Below, piece by piece: positions 1,885 through 35,565 of a stretch of 35,565 nucleotides of DNA. How positions within the stretch are numbered: position 1 is the stretch's first letter; the number at the start of each line of letters is the position of its first letter. Origin of the DNA: a virus. Lineage: Duplodnaviria > Heunggongvirae > Uroviricota > Caudoviricetes. The stretch spans positions 1-35,565 of the IMG/VR virus record IMGVR_UViG_2541047908_000011; one strand, 5' to 3'. A program made the translations under genes and the position numbers. Under the pieces are notes generated by a model. The model had not been told where the DNA came from. It searched no databases and saw only the letters and a list, made by a program, of their open reading frames with translations.

Positions 1885-2525
1885 TTGTCGGTATACCTCT
1901 CTCGTTTACTCAGTTGTTCAGGAATATGGTGCAGCAGCTCGCCGTCGCCGCAGTAAATTGCGGCATGATTCGGCACCGATGAACCAAAGCAGCACAGCAG
2001 CACGTCGCCAGGCTGCGCCTCTGTCAGTGCGACACGGTAAAAACCAGTCGCCTCCATATTGCCAAGATAGAGATTCTGACCGTTACGCCACCAGTCATCC
2101 CCGCGATGAAAATCCGGCATCTCAATCCCCGCCAGATGATAAGCATCCCGGAACAGCGTGTAACAGTCCGTCACCCCGTGCTCAAAGCGACGCCCGGTAA
2201 GATGTGGCACACAGCGGAACTTGTGAATCGCCCCCCGGCAGACCAGCCACCACGGCAAATCACTCTGCACCTGCAGCCGCCGGTCAGCCTCACTCAGCCA
2301 GGGCAGACCACCGGGATGACTGTGGACCAGTGCCACAATCTCACCCTGCATCTCTGCCTGCAGCCAGTCCTCCGGAGCCATCCGGAAATAATCCTCCGGC
2401 TCACCGGAAATATTCACGCAGGGAAAATATCTTTCCCCCTCCGGCGCTCTCACCACGAAGCCGCACGACTCCGCTGGCGCACATCGCAGGGCGTGCGCCA
2501 GAATCGCTGATTCTGTCTCTGTCAT
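1782..2525 (-). CDS. K: Tail assembly protein K (MPN/JAB-like plus NlpC/P60-like peptidase domains)
   Basis: 247-aa ORF with HSHP motif (JAB-type metal site) and Cys/His peptidase-like C-terminus. Lies between L and I. Exact start uncertain. Confidence 0.8.
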   Translation of the reverse strand: MTETESAILAHALRCAPAESCGFVVRAPEGERYFPCVNISGEPEDYFRMAPEDWLQAEMQGEIVALVHSHPGGLPWLSEADRRLQVQSDLPWWLVCRGAIHKFRCVPHLTGRRFEHGVTDCYTLFRDAYHLAGIEMPDFHRGDDWWRNGQNLYLGNMEATGFYRVALTEAQPGDVLLCCFGSSVPNHAAIYCGDGELLHHIPEQLSKRERYTDKWQRRTHSLWRHRAWHASAFTGICNDLAAASTFV

Positions 2526-2530
2526 GGGAT

Positions 2531-3229
2531 TTACTGCGAAAGTTTGTTAATGGAAAGGAAGCCGCCAAAGTTGCCGACGTTATTGCGAAACTTACAGCCG
2601 CTCAGGCATTTGCTGCATTTATCCTTCGTGATATCGGACGTCGGCTGGTCATATTCATCCGCGACCGCCGGGCCATCATAACCGCACTCATCGCCGCGGT
2701 AGATCCAGGTGCAGGTGTTGGCCAGCATGATGCGCCCCGGAAAAACAGCGCCATCCGTTTCCGTCGGTGTGGACAGCACAAAAGAGGCACTGACCGCGCT
2801 CAGTTCGCTGCACTGTTCGATGCGCCAGCGGCTGATCACCTCCTGCTCCGGATCGGCGTCACTGTTTCCGTTGACGAAGTTCACCGCATCCAGAAAACGG
2901 GCGTAAACCTTACGCCGGACCACCGTTCCGCCGACCAGACTCTGCAGATCTTCCGCCATCCCGGTGACCATGCCGTACAGGTTAGAGACTTTAAGCGTTG
3001 GCCTTGCACTGGCTCCTTTGCCGTTCATCTCAAATCCGCTTCCCTGAATGGGATAAGCCTGATACTGCCGCCCCTGCCAGGTGACTGGTTCACCTTTTTC
3101 GTTCTGCTCATTACAGAAGAAATAACGATCTCCGCCGACCTCTGTCAGATCAATTTCCCAGAGCACGACCAGCGCGGATTGCTCCGTTTTAGTGCACTCA
3201 TTGAGTGTTTCCTGCTGTATATCCTGCAT
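2531..3229 (-). CDS. L: Minor tail protein L (lambda gpL-like, Cys-rich C-terminus)
   Basis: 232-aa ORF, MQDIQQETLNEC...; C-terminal cysteine cluster (CSKCLSGCKF) typical of gpL. Synteny M-L-K-I-J. Confidence 0.85.
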   Translation of the reverse strand: MQDIQQETLNECTKTEQSALVVLWEIDLTEVGGDRYFFCNEQNEKGEPVTWQGRQYQAYPIQGSGFEMNGKGASARPTLKVSNLYGMVTGMAEDLQSLVGGTVVRRKVYARFLDAVNFVNGNSDADPEQEVISRWRIEQCSELSAVSASFVLSTPTETDGAVFPGRIMLANTCTWIYRGDECGYDGPAVADEYDQPTSDITKDKCSKCLSGCKFRNNVGNFGGFLSINKLSQ

Positions 3230-3585
3230 CAGTGAGTGACCTCTTCAAAGGTACAGTTAAAATCGGTATACATGGCATTATCCGAAATGCTCCACTCCCT
3301 GCAGACAACCCGGACAGTCCTGTTGTGTTTTGGCGGACGCCACAAAAAAGCACGAATCCCGGCATGACGGGATAAAAAACTGTCCAGCGCGGCACGGGAA
3401 TATTCATCTGTGACACGAAATACCGGTTTAAACGTTTTCAGATCCGCATTCAGACCACCAGCCCGTCGCTGTTCATATCCGTCACCAAACTTTACCGTAA
3501 TAACTGATGGCTTTCGTGTCGTCTCCATCCCCTCACGGGGGATCCAGTTAAAAACTTCAGGCTCAGGCACTGTACAATCCTCCAT
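3229..3585 (-). CDS. M: Minor tail protein M (lambda gpM-like)
   Basis: Contains FNW...GM...PSV...V(K/R)FGDGY, which aligns to the lambda M N-terminus from memory. Start chosen at the in-frame ATG 3585; alternatives are 3615 and 3528. Overlaps the tape-measure 3' end. Confidence 0.7.
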   Translation of the reverse strand: MEDCTVPEPEVFNWIPREGMETTRKPSVITVKFGDGYEQRRAGGLNADLKTFKPVFRVTDEYSRAALDSFLSRHAGIRAFLWRPPKHNRTVRVVCREWSISDNAMYTDFNCTFEEVTH

Positions 3586-22910: not shown

Positions 22911-23066
22911 TTACTCCTCAGGTTCGTAAGCTGTGAAGACAGCGACCTCCGTCTGGCCGGTTCGGATTCGTACCTCGCAGAGGTCTTTCCTCGTTACCAG
23001 TGCCGTCACTATGACGGTTAAACAGATGACGATCAGGGCGATTAACATCGCCTTTTGCTGCTTCAT
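22911..23066 (-). CDS. hokD: Hok/Gef-family type I toxin (HokD/RelF-like)
   Basis: 51-aa product MKQQKAMLIALIVICLTVIVTALVTRKDLCEVRIRTGQTEVAVFTAYEPEE: single TM helix plus conserved RK.LCE..R.....EVAAF-type tail. The in-frame upstream extension to 23123 may correspond to mok. Confidence 0.8.
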   Translation of the reverse strand: MKQQKAMLIALIVICLTVIVTALVTRKDLCEVRIRTGQTEVAVFTAYEPEE

Positions 23067-23303
23067 AGCCTGCTTCTCCTTGCCTTTCGGCGCGTAAGAG
23101 GCTAACCTAGATTTGCCGTTCATAGATTGAGCCTCAGATTAATGTTAAGCGTCTTGCCGGACGCGTAATGTTAACTGGGGCTTTTCTCTATCTGCCTTTC
23201 AGTGTTCATGCCTGAGACAGATAGCCTCAAGCACCCGCAGCCATTCTACTTAACTCACGTCACCTCGCCAATATGAAATCAATCAGAAAGGTGATCCATA
23301 AAA

Positions 23304-23990
23304 TCACTCCTTCTCTTCTTTTCCGTAGTGGAGTTGGCCAATTTTGATAAGAGGGCGTCCCTGAGATTTGCGGTGTAGATTGGTATCGCGCAGAGAATAC
23401 ACACAGCCACAATATTCCTGCTGATAGAATTTTTCGCGCTTGCTGATTTCAATCATACGGGACGAGCCGCCCTGCTTGCGCCAGTTATAATCCCAGTACA
23501 CCATACCCGGATAATGCGCAACAGCTCGCCGCCCACACTCGTTAACCTGCTGCATATTTTTCCAGCGTGAAATGCCCAGTGAACTACTGATCACACTGAA
23601 ACCATTTTCAGCAGCGTACAACGCTGTCCGCTCAAAACGCATGTCAAAACACATGGTACAACGGATCCCCCTCTCAGGCTCCCATTCCATTCCTTTGGCA
23701 CGTTCAAACCAGTTGTCGGTGTCGTAATCAGCATCGATAAACGGCACGCCGTGTTGTTCAGCAAAGCGAATATTTTCATCCTTACGAATTAAATACTCTT
23801 TCTGAGGATGAATGTTCGGGTTGTAGAAAAAGATGGTGTAGTCGATTCCCGAGGCCTGAAGCGCCTCCATCACTTCACCGGAACATGGAGCACAGCAAGA
23901 GTGCAGTAGTAGTTTGTTTGCCCCGTTTGGGAGCTCCAATTTAGGCCGTTTGAAATCAGCAATAGTCATAAATATTTTTATTGGGGTCAT
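23304..23990 (-). CDS. queH: QueH-like epoxyqueuosine reductase homolog (DUF208, Cys-rich)
   Basis: 228-aa ORF with [17 protein letters not shown] and CGC cysteine motifs, consistent with DUF208/QueH as I remember the family. Start ambiguous (23990 or 23969). Confidence 0.55.
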
Positions 23991-27114: not shown

Positions 27115-27540
27115 TTAGTGCATCACCACAGCATTCCCTGCCGGGCCGCCGCGATTCATCTGGTCATACAAAACAACCGCTGACGCAACAAAATCATCGA
27201 CATCCTTCACCAGCCGATCCCTCCGTTCGACGATCTCACGGTAATATTCAGAACTGTGGCTGCGCATACGGGCCACCAGCAAAGGTGGCATTGCCTTTTC
27301 GATCGCTGGTAACAACGCCTGAATTTTTTCAACTGCATCAGGGGTGTCTTTCTCTACCCAGCGGAAAATTTTCTGGGTATTGCGAGCCAGGGCTTCCGGA
27401 TGGCTGTCGTCATACAGTTCCGGGAACGTCATTCCCAGCTCGAAATAAGTCCGGGCTATTTCAGCTGCTGGAACTTTCTCACCGTCTGGATACGCCCAGG
27501 CATTCATTGCCATGCGGATGTGTTCATGCTTGATTTTCAT
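27115..27540 (-). CDS. YdaT-like (CII-like) early regulatory protein
   Basis: 141-aa ORF, MKIKHEHIRMAMNAWAYPDGEK..., between the cro-like gene and the O-like gene. Resembles Rac prophage YdaT as I remember it. Confidence 0.55.
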   Translation of the reverse strand: MKIKHEHIRMAMNAWAYPDGEKVPAAEIARTYFELGMTFPELYDDSHPEALARNTQKIFRWVEKDTPDAVEKIQALLPAIEKAMPPLLVARMRSHSSEYYREIVERRDRLVKDVDDFVASAVVLYDQMNRGGPAGNAVVMH

Positions 27541-27796
27541 GAATCAGCTCCGGTGCATTTGATGTGTTAACCTTGAATCCAACAGGTAAACCGTCGGTTG
27601 GGTTAGGATAAATATCAGGGCGAATTTCATGCGGGGTAACTTCCCACTTCATTAGCTGACATAACGGAATTACCTGCTTTGGGGGAACGTCAAAGCTAAA
27701 CCATTGCCAAACAGTCTGTTGAGCGACCCCCATATAACGACCTATTTCAGCTTGAGTGTATTTCTGCCTAATTTTTTCGCGAGTGCTATCTAGCAT
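27524..27796 (-). CDS. Cro-like HTH regulator (YdaS-like)
   Basis: 90-aa ORF with HTH (QAEIGRYMGVAQQTVWQW). GAGGAG RBS. Divergent from the repressor gene. Confidence 0.65.
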   Translation of the reverse strand: MLDSTREKIRQKYTQAEIGRYMGVAQQTVWQWFSFDVPPKQVIPLCQLMKWEVTPHEIRPDIYPNPTDGLPVGFKVNTSNAPELIHENQA

Positions 27797-27830
27797 TTTG
27801 CTCTCCTCTAAAAAACTATAAGCAAAGCCT

Positions 27831-27869
27831 ACAATAAAAAACTGTACACAATCAACAGTTTTTTATTGT
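27831..27869. promoter_or_regulatory. Operator-like perfect palindrome in the divergent repressor/cro-like intergenic region
   Basis: ACAATAAAAAACTGT, 9-nt spacer, ACAGTTTTTTATTGT: perfect 15-bp arms. Confidence 0.55.
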
Positions 27870-27905
27870 GATGCTTTTAACAGTATTTACCTGTAAAATT
27901 GAATA

Positions 27906-28307
27906 ATGATGAACGCCCTAGAAGTATCTATGTACAGAATCAGCAAGCTTCTTCAGGAAACTGGATGGAGCCAGGCTGAGCTTGCCCGTAGAATTGGTGT
28001 GACACAACAAACTGTTCAACAATGGGTCAGCGGTAAGGCTACACCTAAAGCCTCAAGTTTGGATAAACTGGTTGAGGTTACAGGGCATCCATTGCATTGG
28101 TTTTTATTGCCTCCTGAAGAGGGGGAGCAAATTTTCACCCCTGACACGATGAAAATTGGTCCTCGTCAACGCGAACTGCTCCAGGCTTTTAGTGCGTTTC
28201 CAGAGGAAGACCAAGAAAAAATGCTTCAAGAAATCAAAGACAAGAAAAAATCAATGGAAGAAACCATTGCCCGGTGGTTGGCGGCACAAAAAAGCCGCCG
28301 GGCGTGA
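27906..28307 (+). CDS. Prophage repressor-like HTH (XRE-family) regulator, PaaR-like; first gene of a three-gene operon with a ParE-type TA pair
   Basis: 133-aa ORF with HTH (WSQAELARRIGVTQQTVQQWVSG) and no S24 peptidase domain. Divergent from the cro-like gene. Confidence 0.65.
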   Translation: MMNALEVSMYRISKLLQETGWSQAELARRIGVTQQTVQQWVSGKATPKASSLDKLVEVTGHPLHWFLLPPEEGEQIFTPDTMKIGPRQRELLQAFSAFPEEDQEKMLQEIKDKKKSMEETIARWLAAQKSRRA

Positions 28308-28334
28308 CCACAGTACAAGAAGAGGAGTTATGCC

Positions 28335-28526
28335 ATGAGTACAGCCCTTTCTCCGATAGTTTCAGAATTCGAAACTACCGAACAAGAAAACAGTTACAAC
28401 GAATGGTTACGCGCTAAAGTGGCGTCAAGCCTTGCAGACCCTCGTCCCTCAATTCCACATGATGAGGTAATGGCTGAAATGGAGAATCTTATTGCTCAAA
28501 TTGCTGTAACTAACAGGAGCGAGTAA
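28335..28526 (+). CDS. Antitoxin (PaaA-like, 63 aa) of a ParE-family toxin
   Basis: 63-aa acidic ORF overlapping the toxin start by 1 nt (ATGA-type coupling). Confidence 0.6.
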   Translation: MSTALSPIVSEFETTEQENSYNEWLRAKVASSLADPRPSIPHDEVMAEMENLIAQIAVTNRSE

Positions 28527-28813
28527 TGTTACCCATTTTGTGGCTACCATCTGCTCGCGATGATTTGCGTCAGATCGTAGCCTATATTGCTAAGGAAAAT
28601 ATTCCTGCAGCACGCAGACTAAAAATACGGATTGAAACGTCTGTTTTAGCCCTCTCTGAGCATCCATATCTATATCCGCCAAGTGATCGAGTATCCGGTT
28701 TGCGGGAAATTGTGGTTCACCCTAATTATATCGTTTTGTACCGAGTAGCAACTTCAAGCATTGAAATTGCAAATATTGTGCATGCCCGCCGACAATTTCC
28801 CTTCCCTATCTGA
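28526..28813 (+). CDS. parE: RelE/ParE-family type II toxin
   Basis: 95-aa ORF, MLPILWLPSARDDLRQIVAYIA..., typical ParE N-terminus and size. Coupled to the upstream small antitoxin gene. Confidence 0.7.
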   Translation: MLPILWLPSARDDLRQIVAYIAKENIPAARRLKIRIETSVLALSEHPYLYPPSDRVSGLREIVVHPNYIVLYRVATSSIEIANIVHARRQFPFPI

Positions 28814-28830
28814 ACTGAACAATTTTCACA

Positions 28831-28855
28831 CTCCCTCATTCGAGGGAGTTTTTTT
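28831..28855 (+). terminator. Rho-independent terminator after the repressor-TA operon
   Basis: CTCCCTC-ATTC-GAGGGAG followed by TTTTTTT. Confidence 0.7.
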
Positions 28856-28867
28856 GCCCAACACAAC

Positions 28868-28902
28868 AATTAAAAACTGTTGACACAAAACAGTTTTTAA
28901 TT
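28868..28902. promoter_or_regulatory. Second operator-like palindrome (OL-like), same core as 27831-27869
   Basis: CAATTAAAAACTGTT, 7-nt spacer, AACAGTTTTTAATTG: perfect 15-bp arms, sharing the AAAAACTGT...ACAGTTTTT core. A TTGACA hexamer lies in the spacer. Confidence 0.5.
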
Positions 28903-29226
28903 GTAGATTATTTCCACTACCCACCCCGCCCCACAGAACGCAGGGCAATACTTCGAGTTACCCGGCAGTGGTCAGGGGTTAAGTAGCCAGCCCGAGGCGT
29001 AAGAACATGACGGCAGGGTTCAACTTTAATAACTATGCAGCAGGTTTTTGTTCCGCTACCCCGGCGTTAAGGGGAAACAGAGGATTTCTCAGTGGGCGAA
29101 GTCAAACATCAGAATGGAAGGCATCCCGGGATCGGCAAAGAAGCAGCAATGGCGCTTTATATTGACATCAGCGCCATTGCCGGACAGGTAAGAATTATCA
29201 GAGCGGTAACTAAGCGGTATGCGCCT

Positions 29227-29738: not shown

Positions 29739-30305
29739 TAGCTAACCAACGAAGCTAAGGTTGGTAATTAAGGAGTTCTCCACGGGTGAGGTGGAGTGCG
29801 TGCGCCGGACACGGGTGAACATCCAGCACAGACAGTTTACTGAAAGGATATTTCCCTGAAAAGTCAGACCATAACGCGAAAGCGCACGGCGAGGTAGCTG
29901 GTTCATAGATAGCCTGTCGTTAAATTTTCGTCGACCGTGCGCTTCCGGTTGTGGCACTCCGCGAAATGGCGCGGCGGTAAGTATGGCGGGGTTATTCCTT
30001 CCCCGTTGAGGACACCGGGTTGTCAGGTTGACCATACGCTTAAGTGACAACCCCGCTGCAACGCCCTCTGTTATCAATTTTCTGGTGACGTTTGGCGGTA
30101 TCAGTTTTACTCCGTGACTGCTCTGCCGCCCTTTTTAAAGTGAATTTTGTGATGTGGTGAATGCGGCTGAGCGCACGCGGAACAGTTAAAACCAAAAACA
30201 GTGTTATGGGTGGATTCTCTGTATCCGGCGTTAATTGTTAACTGGTTAACGTCACCTGGAGGCACCAGGCACCGCATCACAAAATTCATTGTTGAGGACG
30301 CGATA

Positions 30306-30494
30306 ATGGAAACGTTATTACCAAACGTTAATACGTCTGAAGGTTGTTTTGAAATTGGTGTCACTATCAGTAACCCTGAATTTACTGAAGATGCCATTAA
30401 CAAGAGAAAACACGAACGGGAGTTATTAAATAAAATATGCATTGTTTCAATGCTGGCCCGTTTACGCCTGATGCAAAAAGGACGCTGGCAATGA
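30306..30494 (+). CDS. Hypothetical small protein (62 aa)
   Basis: GAGGA RBS. Translationally coupled (ATGA overlap) to the next ORF. Confidence 0.4.
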   Translation: METLLPNVNTSEGCFEIGVTISNPEFTEDAINKRKHERELLNKICIVSMLARLRLMQKGRWQ

Positions 30495-33303: not shown

Positions 33304-33507
33304 ATGAGCAGCTTATTTTTAACCGAAGATGAATTGCTAATATTAACGGGCTGCAAATATGCAAGCCACCAGCGAAAATGGTTAATGGAAAACGGGCTTC
33401 CGTTCTATACCAATCGTAGTGGCAAACCGATTGTCAGCCGGGATCTATTTACCTGCAATAAAACTTTACCACCACGCGAGGTAGAGCCGAATTTTGGTGC
33501 GATCTGA
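33304..33507 (+). CDS. Excisionase-like protein
   Basis: 67-aa ORF immediately upstream of int, with its stop overlapping the int start. Confidence 0.6.
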   Translation: MSSLFLTEDELLILTGCKYASHQRKWLMENGLPFYTNRSGKPIVSRDLFTCNKTLPPREVEPNFGAI

Positions 33508-34532
33508 TGGGAAGACGAAGGAAAAATCCTGAACACGAAAAATTACCTCCAAATGTATACCCAAATAAATATAGTTATGTATGGAAACCAACATCCAGAG
33601 AATCTGTCACACTAACCGCCATCAAGGATGGTTTAGCTGCTTTATGGAAAAAGTATGAGGAAACTGTAAATAATCGCGATCGTGCAATGACATTCGGTCG
33701 CTTGTGGGAAAAATTCCTCGCCAGCGCCTATTACAGTGACCTTAGTCCAAGAACACAAAAAGATTATCTGCAACATCAAAAAAAGTTGCTTGCCGTATTC
33801 GGTAAGGTACCAGCGGATTCCATAAAACCAGAACACATCCGTCGATACATGGACAAAAGAGGGGAGCAGAGTAAAACGCAAGCCAACCATGAAAAAAGCA
33901 GTATGTCCCGTGTTTACAGTTGGGGGTATGAGCGAGGGTACGTGAAGGCTAACCCATGTGCAGGTGTAAGTAAATTCAAGGCCAAAAACCGCGAACGATA
34001 TGTAACCGACAAAGAATACCAGGCAGTATTAAGCGTTGCACCTCTTCCTGTTTTTATCGCAATGGAAATTGCCTATCTGTGTGCAGCGAGGGTTTCCGAT
34101 GTGTTATCGCTGAAATGGGAACAGATTGGAAACGACGGGATATTCATCCAGCAAGGGAAAACCGGAAAAAAACAGATAAAAGCATGGAGTCCACGATTAC
34201 AGGCAGCGATCGAAAAAGCAAAACAGTTACCAAAATCTGCCTATGTGATCAGCAATCAATACGGCAACCGATATATGTACAAAGGCTTTAACGAAATGTG
34301 GGTAGATGCAAGAAATCGTGCTGGAAAAATTTCAGGTATTTTAACCGACTTCACCTTTCATGATCTGAAGGCGAAAGGAATTTCAGACTATGAAGGAAGC
34401 AGCCGGGATAAGCAACTTTTCTCTGGTCACAAAACCGAAGGGCAAGTGCTAATCTATGACAGGAAGGTTAAAGTTTCACCAACACTTGATGTCCCGTTAC
34501 CTGAAAATATTCCAAGAAAATATTCCAAGTAA
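33507..34532 (+). CDS. int: Tyrosine integrase (lambda Int family)
   Basis: 341-aa ORF with a C-terminal catalytic region (FHDLKA...GH...LIYDRK) consistent with the R-H-R-Y active site. Adjacent to the tRNA 3' end. Confidence 0.9.
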   Translation: MGRRRKNPEHEKLPPNVYPNKYSYVWKPTSRESVTLTAIKDGLAALWKKYEETVNNRDRAMTFGRLWEKFLASAYYSDLSPRTQKDYLQHQKKLLAVFGKVPADSIKPEHIRRYMDKRGEQSKTQANHEKSSMSRVYSWGYERGYVKANPCAGVSKFKAKNRERYVTDKEYQAVLSVAPLPVFIAMEIAYLCAARVSDVLSLKWEQIGNDGIFIQQGKTGKKQIKAWSPRLQAAIEKAKQLPKSAYVISNQYGNRYMYKGFNEMWVDARNRAGKISGILTDFTFHDLKAKGISDYEGSSRDKQLFSGHKTEGQVLIYDRKVKVSPTLDVPLPENIPRKYSK

Positions 34533-34584: not shown

Positions 34585-34674
34585 TGGCGGAGAGAGGGGG
34601 ATTTGAACCCCCGGTGGAGTTGCCCCCACTCCGGTTTTCGAGACCGGTCCGTTCAGCCGCTCCGGCATCTCTCC
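34585..34674 (-). tRNA. serU: tRNA-Ser (anticodon CGA)
   Basis: Minus strand reads GGAGAGATGCCGGAGCGGCTGAACGGACCGGTCTCGAAAACCGGAGTGGGGGCAACTCCACCGGGGGTTCAAATCCCCCTCTCTCCGCCA: 90 nt with long variable arm and CCA end; anticodon loop CU-CGA-AA. Confidence 0.9.
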
Positions 34675-34767
34675 GTTCAGATGGTTGCCATGATGCCAGG
34701 AAATTTGGCATTTTAACAGTCCCTGTCCGTGCAATTTTGTTCAAGTGACGAGTTTGCGAGCAAAACG

Positions 34768-35565
34768 ATGATTAAGTGGCCCTGGAAAGTACAAGAATCA
34801 GCACATCAAACTGCCCTTCCCTGGCAGGAAGCACTATCGATCCCCCTTTTAACGTGTCTGACAGAACAGGAACAAAGCAAATTGGTCGCTCTTGCCGAAC
34901 GTTTTTTACAGCAAAAACGGCTTGTTCCTTTACAGGGCTTTGAGCTGAATTCATTAAGAAGCTGCCGGATAGCACTTCTATTTTGCCTGCCCGTTCTGGA
35001 GTTAGGACTGGAATGGCTGGATGGTTTTCATGAAGTCTTAATTTATCCTGCGCCATTTGTGGTCGATGATGAATGGGAAGACGATATCGGTCTGGTGCAT
35101 AACCAACGTATTGTTCAGTCAGGTCAGAGCTGGCAGCAAGGGCCTATCGTTTTGAACTGGTTGGATATACAAGATTCTTTTGATGCTTCTGGTTTTAACC
35201 TGATTATTCATGAAGTCGCTCATAAGCTGGACACCCGTAACGGCGATCGCGCCAGCGGAGTTCCCTTTATTTCGTTGCGTGAGGTTGCTGGCTGGGAACA
35301 TGATCTTCATGCTGCAATGAACAACATTCAGGAAGAAATCGAATTAGTTGGTGAGAATGCGGCGAGCATTGATGCTTATGCTGCCAGTGATCCTGCTGAA
35401 TGTTTTGCCGTACTTTCTGAATATTTCTTTAGCGCCCCAGAACTTTTTGCTCCTCGTTTCCCTTCATTGTGGCAACGTTTCTGTCAATTTTATCAACAAG
35501 ATCCTTTGCAGAGACTGCATCACGCTAATGATACAGACCCGTTTTCGGCGACGAATGTTCATTAA
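34768..35565 (+). CDS. mtfA: Host gene mtfA (Mlc titration factor A / YeeI, zinc-dependent peptidase)
   Basis: 265-aa [23 protein letters not shown]..., with HEVAH zinc-binding motif. This is the known chromosomal neighbour of serU in E. coli. Confidence 0.9.

Follow-up and report, generated by a model that had tools for sequence, protein, structure and literature searches.

In the window (the entire 35,565-nt stretch that was analysed) the locus consists of an operon of three plus-strand genes, paaR, paaA and parE, with an oppositely oriented gene pair, ydaS and ydaT, in front of it (Table 1). The first gene of the operon encodes a separate helix–turn–helix (HTH) regulator that is a homologue of PaaR, and the second and third encode an antitoxin and a toxin. 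A gap of 27 nt, which contains no terminator, separates paaR from paaA. The stop codon of paaA and the start codon of parE share base 28526 (TAATG), so that these two genes overlap by 1 nt. The operon ends 3′ of parE at an intrinsic terminator, with an 8-bp stem that includes five GC pairs, a 4-nt loop (stem-loop at 28830-28849) and a T7 tail. An earlier reading of this DNA, made from its letters and open reading frames without database searches (the sequence-only reading), had described the trio with these coordinates, sizes and 1-nt overlap, followed by a terminator, and a check of the open reading frames and of the region behind the toxin gene agrees with it on each count.

Table 1. Genes and regulatory elements of the paaR-paaA-parE locus, by position in the window
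Feature	Position	Strand	Basis or description
ydaT-like gene, 141 aa, putative functional analogue of CII	27115-27540	-	Pfam YdaT_toxin 7.8e-10; phrog_163 8.5e-47
ydaS-like gene, 90 aa, putative functional analogue of Cro	27524-27796	-	Pfam YdaS_toxin 1.6e-9; phrog_35 8.5e-28
Candidate YdaT operator (OM-like), inverted repeat TTGATTTTCATGAATCAG at the ydaS/ydaT junction, position of a PRE-like promoter	27530-27547	.	1 mismatch to the published site
PR-like promoter (inferred), TTGATT-18-TAGGCT, inside the OR palindrome	27826-27855	-	minus-strand sequence reading
Putative OR-like operator, 39-bp palindrome ACAATAAAAAACTGT-N9-ACAGTTTTTTATTGT	27831-27869	.	15-nt arms, 100% complementary
Degenerate extra half-site near the OR-like operator	27880-27894		
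PRM-like -10 element TAAAAT (inferred), 6 nt upstream of the paaR ATG	27894-27899	+	sequence reading
paaR (PaaR1-type), putative HTH immunity repressor, 133 aa, without S24 domain	27906-28307	+	HTH_3, DicA-subfamily match, 98% identity to O157:H7 copy
paaA, antitoxin by homology, 63 aa, without DNA-binding domain	28335-28526	+	Pfam PaaA2, PDB 3zbe
parE, toxin by homology, 95 aa	28526-28813	+	Pfam ParE_toxin, PDB 5cw7
Intrinsic terminator, end of the paaR-paaA-parE operon	28830-28856 including tail	+	ACTCCCTC-ATTC-GAGGGAGT, then T7
Putative OL-like operator, 39-bp palindrome ACAATTAAAAACTGTT-N7-AACAGTTTTTAATTGT	28866-28904	.	16-nt arms, 100% complementary
Predicted PL-like promoter, TTGACA-18-TAGATT, inside the OL palindrome	28880-28909	+	sigma-70 consensus scan

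All three proteins of the operon have family matches far beyond chance. The sole Pfam match of the antitoxin is PaaA2 (1.1e-21) and its sole NCBIfam match is a 45-position model of RelB-family antitoxins (NF050103). No RHH or ParD match is found for it in Pfam or NCBIfam, which places the pair outside the canonical ParD-ParE type. Among solved structures the antitoxin matches PaaA2 (pdb 3zbe; 1.5e-22), to which it is 74% identical. The toxin aligns with the Pfam ParE_toxin profile from end to end (4.4e-16, profile positions 1-89 of 89) and with the crystallised ParE2 (pdb 5cw7; 2.3e-38) at 68% identity over 93 aa. From the published work on the paralogue in prophage CP-933P, the 95-aa protein would be expected to be toxic and to be neutralised by the 63-aa protein, whose Clp-dependent instability would lead to addiction. 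PaaA1 and ParE2 have been reported not to cross-neutralise (PMC4803016).

The regulator is matched by Pfam HTH_3 (1.7e-13) and more weakly by Phage_CI_repr (9.7e-6). Its match to the DicA-subfamily model of NCBIfam (4e-14) spans the whole length of the protein (residues 11-130) and stays under the cutoff of that model; against solved structures only the generic HTH of 434 repressor was matched. There is no Peptidase_S24 match in Pfam, which sets the regulator apart from the CI/LexA-type repressors with an S24 autopeptidase. Identity to PaaR2 is 42% over 98 aa and is highest in the C-terminal 45 aa, where the two proteins have near-identical motifs (for example ELLQxFSAFPE and IARWxAAQKxRRA), whereas their N-terminal DNA-binding parts differ. 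The kinship with the PaaR-PaaA-ParE arrangement of O157 prophages that the sequence-only reading had suggested is thereby borne out by alignment to PaaR2-PaaA2-ParE2, in the antitoxin and toxin through the identities given above and in the regulator through the shared C-terminal domain. DNA binding by the regulator, and its action in repression or activation, are expected from the published work on the CP-933P paralogue.

Two 39-bp palindromes with perfect arms, 82% identical to each other, bracket the operon. The motif they have in common, AAAACTGT-N5-11-ACAGTTTT, is found nowhere else in the 35.5-kb window, and 0 occurrences are expected in shuffled sequence. They were also considered as LexA sites and rejected, their spacing being CTGT-N9-ACAG; the LexA box itself, CTGT-N8-ACAG, does not occur in the window. 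Each palindrome contains a candidate promoter. The PL-like promoter is the sole 10-of-12 match to the sigma-70 consensus between 27500 and 29300 and faces DicF (Rfam, 76.7 bits), dicB, the gene for an 823-aa exonuclease and the integrase gene. The PR-like promoter occupies the same place in its own palindrome and is followed by a GAGGAG Shine–Dalgarno sequence and the ATG of ydaS. This layout of palindromes and promoters is as expected for OR/PR and OL/PL. The consensus scan missed the PRM-like promoter of paaR, the -35 element of which is poor. These promoter assignments are readings of the sequence, and the elements are best regarded as candidates.

No Shine–Dalgarno sequence precedes the start of paaR at 27906. 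The spacing from the -10 element to the ATG is the same as in CP-933P (GATAAT, 6 nt, ATG), where paaR2 undergoes leaderless translation and 5′ RACE put the transcription start at the start codon (PMC8630535); this shared spacing makes it likely that the paaR mRNA of the window is leaderless as well.

On the other side of a 109-bp intergenic region, paaR is divergent from ydaS, which in turn overlaps ydaT. The PHROGs family matched by YdaT, phrog_163, carries the label ‘CII-like transcriptional activator’. The inverted repeat at the ydaS/ydaT junction is one base off the YdaT operator TTGATTN6AATCAA that was shown in CP-933P (PMC9986795), and it lies at the same place as OM in that prophage. 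The divergent cro-like gene and the two palindromes of the sequence-only reading are thus both present, and its central claim, that the regulator sits in the slot of a lambdoid immunity repressor, is upheld by the divergent cro-like/cII-like pair, by the overlap of the bracketing palindromes with the PR-like and PL-like promoters and by a relative in which a DicA-like homologue occupies the same slot.

The allele of the window is common in sequenced E. coli. A 1451-bp core of the locus (27500-28950) is 100% identical in 20 of the 20 complete E. coli genomes listed, among them IHE3034, and is found in 44 records at at least 99% identity. At least 80% of the core is covered in 509 of 5426 genomes, and the toxin–antitoxin (TA) pair alone has matches in 842. 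Among sequenced phages megablast returned only matches of about 50 bp, and tblastn with ParE a single phage, Escherichia phage Evi. The trio of Evi is of the PaaR2 type, and its parE is unannotated.

Genomes of E. coli O157:H7 contain two such loci, one of the type represented here by L003 and one of the type represented by L005. The L005 regulator begins with MQKKE, the experimentally determined N-terminus of PaaR2, and PaaA2-ParE2, the crystallised pair, makes up the TA part of this locus. Since the other O157:H7 locus is PaaR2, L003 is labelled PaaR1, and by this elimination the system of the window would be of the PaaR1-PaaA1-ParE1 type. The regulator, antitoxin and toxin of the window are 98%, 90% and 85% identical to those of L003, which identifies the trio as the PaaR-PaaA-ParE three-component system that the sequence-only reading had proposed. 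Gene order, protein sizes (133, 63 and 95 aa), the 1-nt overlap, the ydaS/ydaT neighbours, the terminator and the OR/OL palindromes are all the same in the two loci; the host prophages and their replication genes differ, and the body of parE has diverged. Over this part of the gene (about 28560-28810) nucleotide identity to the O157:H7 copy is 70-78%, compared with 92-100% in the rest of the operon and its flanks. The PaaR1-PaaA1-ParE1 paralogue was reportedly placed on the O157:H7 prophage CP-933M by Hallez et al. in 2010.

Comparison of four alleles shows that the cro-like gene, the intergenic region and the HTH domain co-vary (37-61% nucleotide identity), whereas ydaT and the PL leader are conserved. 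L003 keeps the palindromes of the window. A further locus, L004, has a regulator 65% identical to that of the window and different repeats at the same two operator positions, and the repeats at these positions differ in L005 too. The ydaS gene of the window has 96% nucleotide identity to that of L003 but only 46% to that of the heteroimmune CP-933P type, and therefore co-varies with the repressor. The co-variation is the pattern that would be expected of heteroimmune immunity cassettes. Between heteroimmune alleles the PL leader of about 160 nt (28916-29075) retains an identity of 84-97%. As a candidate for a known RNA it was rejected, with no Rfam match and an ordinary folding energy (z = +0.9).

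A related prophage, that of strain E7, occupies the same tRNA-Ser/mtfA site. In the slot of paaR it has a DicA-like repressor that is 25% identical to the regulator over the full length (E = 7e-12), and the PL-side genes follow directly, with no TA pair between. With a homologous repressor in the same slot of this TA-less relative, the TA pair is an optional cargo behind the repressor.

In the prophage around the locus the structural and lysis genes, Q, the replication genes and the gene for a 341-aa integrase all look intact. It also has hok/sok, DicF/DicB and QueH. Coverage of the final 25 kb of the window by any one complete E. coli genome does not exceed 77%, so that the prophage, taken as a unit, is a mosaic with no counterpart in the genome collection.

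The closest system with published functional work is PaaR2-PaaA2-ParE2 of CP-933P, where experiments assigned the roles of CI, Cro and CII to PaaR2, YdaS and YdaT, respectively (Jurenas et al., 2021, mBio; PMC8630535). The S24 motif is absent from PaaR2, a PL/OL exists, and repression of PR933P, PRM933P and PL933P has been shown. The locus is bistable, the whole locus stabilizes a plasmid and the TA pair is addictive, and ParE2 activity went undetected in both transcriptional states (PMC8630535). As in the window, the three genes lie in the cI-rexAB slot, with ydaS/ydaT divergent and PL/OL beyond the operon. YdaT of L005 is 94% identical to that of the window and its operator is common to both; L003 and L005 each have a perfect YdaT-site repeat at the aligned position. 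In contrast, the two systems are unrelated in their operators, in the cro-like gene and in the N-terminal domain with which the regulator binds DNA, and are therefore heteroimmune. The CP-933P operators consist of four 18-bp repeats with the consensus half-site GTTTAGTAA (PMC8630535), whereas the window has one 39-bp palindrome per site together with degenerate half-sites. The functional work concerns PaaR2 and CP-933P alone, and this allele is unlike that of the window in both its DNA-binding domain and its operators.

The immunity regions of Qin (DicA/DicC) and Rac (RacR/YdaS/YdaT) in K-12 likewise have small HTH repressors without S24, divergent from a cro-like gene of the YdaS/DicC type, with dicF/dicB on the PL side; unlike the window, they have no TA pair 3′ of the repressor. 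The likeness to cI-rexA-rexB of lambda is that the repressor and lysogen-expressed accessory genes are co-transcribed and lie between OR/PRM-PR and OL/PL. However, the repressor of the window has no S24 domain and its accessory genes have no homology to rexA or rexB, so that the likeness is positional only. Going by present knowledge, the cargo would also serve another purpose, addiction in the system of the window as against exclusion in rexAB.

Taken together, the anatomy of the locus argues for the published CP-933P-type model, the functional part of which is transferred here by homology. The 133-aa PaaR1-type protein would be the prophage repressor, a DicA-like functional analogue of CI that lacks the S24 autocleavage domain, and the locus would serve for immunity in a lambdoid E. 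coli prophage of the Rac/Qin type, integrated at the tRNA-Ser adjoining mtfA. To this reading, taken as a whole, we assign a probability of roughly 85%. According to it, the weak PRM-like promoter would supply a lysogen with the repressor, through an mRNA that is probably leaderless, and the repressor would bind the two 39-bp palindromes and autoregulate PRM. Binding to the OR-like palindrome would occlude the PR-like promoter of ydaS, ydaT and the replication genes, and binding to the OL-like palindrome would occlude the PL-like promoter of the arm with dicF/dicB, the exonuclease gene and int. YdaS would act as a Cro-like antagonist, and YdaT could drive the operon as well, through the PRE-like promoter where ydaS and ydaT meet. 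The paaA and parE genes would ride on the repressor transcript, which would end at the intrinsic terminator, so that the lysogen would continuously make a labile antitoxin without a DNA-binding domain and a stable ParE-type toxin. It is this coupling that would leave the lysogen addicted to its immunity region: were the region lost or replaced, the antitoxin would decay and ParE would poison the cell, and the immunity module and the prophage would be stabilized as a result.

The positional equivalence to rexAB and the co-expression with the repressor also suit a different main role for PaaA-ParE, in which the pair would serve in Rex-like exclusion or abortive infection of superinfecting phages and not in addiction. 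Defence is the function of many TA systems that prophages carry as ‘morons’. Homology of the antitoxin or toxin to RexA or RexB was sought in Pfam, PADLOC and PHROGs, which give PaaA/ParE families only, and neither PaaA nor ParE is matched by a PADLOC defence model. Generic HTH matches in the regulator are all that PADLOC returned, and an assignment as a defence system was dropped on this account. The published data on the CP-933P paralogue describe plasmid stabilization and addiction and report no defence phenotype (PMC8630535). Exclusion as the main role is accordingly quite unlikely. In a broader form, the repressor-linked pair of a seemingly complete prophage such as this one would do something beyond addiction, either Rex-like exclusion or abortive infection or a coupling to the SOS response, accompanied by turnover of parE alleles; what points to this are the position of the pair and the parE-specific divergence, and we regard it as an unlikely, speculative extension. 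The SOS coupling is suggested by the fact that ParE intoxication induces SOS, while a repressor that lacks S24 cannot sense it. If true, loss of repressor transcription would be linked either with killing of the host or with the induction of other prophages in the same cell, and under either a Rex-like or an SOS role the mosaic patch in parE would reflect toxin-allele turnover under conflict.

A further possibility is that the three genes form a self-contained TA module with a ‘split antitoxin’, in which the regulator controls only its own operon and immunity comes from another gene. This was the original view of PaaR-PaaA-ParE in 2010, according to reviews that include PMC4803016. HTH_3 domains are common in antitoxins, and the regulator has weak NCBIfam matches to HipB, MqsA and HigA. 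Such a module would not account for the recurrence of the palindrome past the terminator, on the PL-like promoter, or for the promoter of ydaS inside the first palindrome, nor would it explain why a homologous regulator occupies the same slot in the TA-less relative. It would also call for a second repressor, of which no candidate was found in the early region: the Pfam matches of the early-region open reading frames are confined to DicB, DUF1482, exonuclease, integrase, DUF1627, DUF977, QueH, a replication protein and a DnaC-like ATPase. The sequence-only reading had named a separate S24-containing repressor elsewhere in the prophage as the finding that would count against it. A tblastn search of the whole window with lambda cI, LexA and UmuD found no S24/LexA-like repressor, the best match (E = 0.47) being to a frame in the capsid region, and the PGAP annotations of related prophages contain no S24-type repressor gene. 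The window thus appears to contain no other repressor; the prophage extends to the left beyond it, where a second regulator is formally possible. For PaaR2 the split-antitoxin view has been refuted experimentally (PMC8630535), and for the window it is very improbable.

That the module has become inert while its cryptic prophage decays, with a toxin or antitoxin no longer functional, is suggested by the cryptic state of CP-933P, the home of the studied paralogue (PMC8630535, PMC9986795), and by the frameshifted integrase of the related prophages in IHE3034 and strain E7, but this is hardly credible against three intact open reading frames with full-length profile and structure matches, a core kept identical or nearly so across the genomes and records cited above, and the intact-looking phage genes in the window.

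The arrangement of the three genes and their reading as occupants of the immunity slot are both on record for prophages of E. coli O157:H7, and the CI/Cro/CII-like circuitry, together with the idea that the pair replaces rexAB, is in the literature for the CP-933P paralogue. The value of the present locus under the CP-933P-type model is modest and comparative. It provides a heteroimmune, PaaR1-type allele with clean, simple OR and OL palindromes, set in a prophage of ExPEC-like strains that seems to be complete, and so offers a convenient second system in which to ask whether PaaR-type repressors confer immunity and what role a linked TA pair plays in a phage that is not cryptic.

Downstream of the PL-like promoter lies a non-coding leader of approximately 160 nt. 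Among four heteroimmune alleles, namely those of the window, of the PaaR1-type (L003, so labelled by elimination) and PaaR2-type (L005) loci of O157:H7, and of a third allele (L004), the leader retains 84–97% nucleotide identity, whereas the immunity genes of the same four are just 37–70% identical. An Rfam search with the leader gave no match, and its folding energy is not better than that of shuffled sequence (z = +0.9). The leader may act in cis, as a nut/put-like or some other element.

Compared with L003, nucleotide identity falls sharply to 70–78% in the body of parE. This fall is limited to parE, as paaR, paaA, the terminator, OL and the PL leader are 92–100% identical. Identity of the ParE protein is still 85%, so the nucleotide changes are mostly synonymous. 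The parE body is a mosaic patch as large as one gene and restricted to that of the toxin. In a search of 50,697 phage genomes the sole ParE match (68.5% identity) is in Escherichia phage Evi. The regulator there is of PaaR2 type and is accompanied by a PaaA gene; the parE ORF is without annotation in the record.

The YdaT operator-like repeat differs from the published TTGATTN6AATCAA by a single mismatch, a final G in place of A, and L003 and L005 carry a perfect repeat at the aligned position. Both predicted operator palindromes flanking the immunity operon contain CTGT-N9-ACAG, the two halves of a LexA box set one base too far apart. A true LexA box (CTGT-N8-ACAG) is found nowhere in the whole window.

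Features of the window and of the phage Evi locus
Feature	Position	Strand	Match
hok-family type I toxin ORF	22911-23123	-	
sok antisense RNA	23061-23236	-	Rfam RF01794, 110.6 bits
QueH homologue	23304-23990	-	Pfam 1.1e-65
YdaT operator-like repeat TTGATTTTCATGAATCAG	27530-27547		
CTGT-N9-ACAG	27841-27859; 28876-28894		
parE body	28560-28810	+	
PL leader	28916-29075	+	
DicF sRNA	30080-30131	+	Rfam RF00039, 76.7 bits
DicB	30201-30494	+	Pfam 1.8e-38
Integrase	33507-34532	+	
tRNA-Ser (anticodon cga)	34585-34674	-	
mtfA	34729-35565	+	
Phage Evi regulator, PaaA gene and parE ORF	LR597642.1 (L006), 2416-3276		

The tRNA-Ser gene and mtfA adjoin the prophage at its integrase end. The integrase ORF is uninterrupted (341 aa), unlike its counterparts in IHE3034 and strain E7, which carry a frameshift according to their annotations. 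Of the final 25 kb of the window, at most 77% is covered by any one complete E. coli genome in the collection, so the whole prophage is a mosaic absent from that collection.

The early-right region also holds a gene for an epoxyqueuosine reductase QueH homologue, flanked by replication genes and hok/sok. With hok/sok, the prophage has a second module of the addiction type. DicF is followed by DicB, whose translation probably begins inside the ORF, near residue 36, and by DUF1482; together these form a Qin-like cell-division-inhibitor operon under the predicted PL-like promoter.
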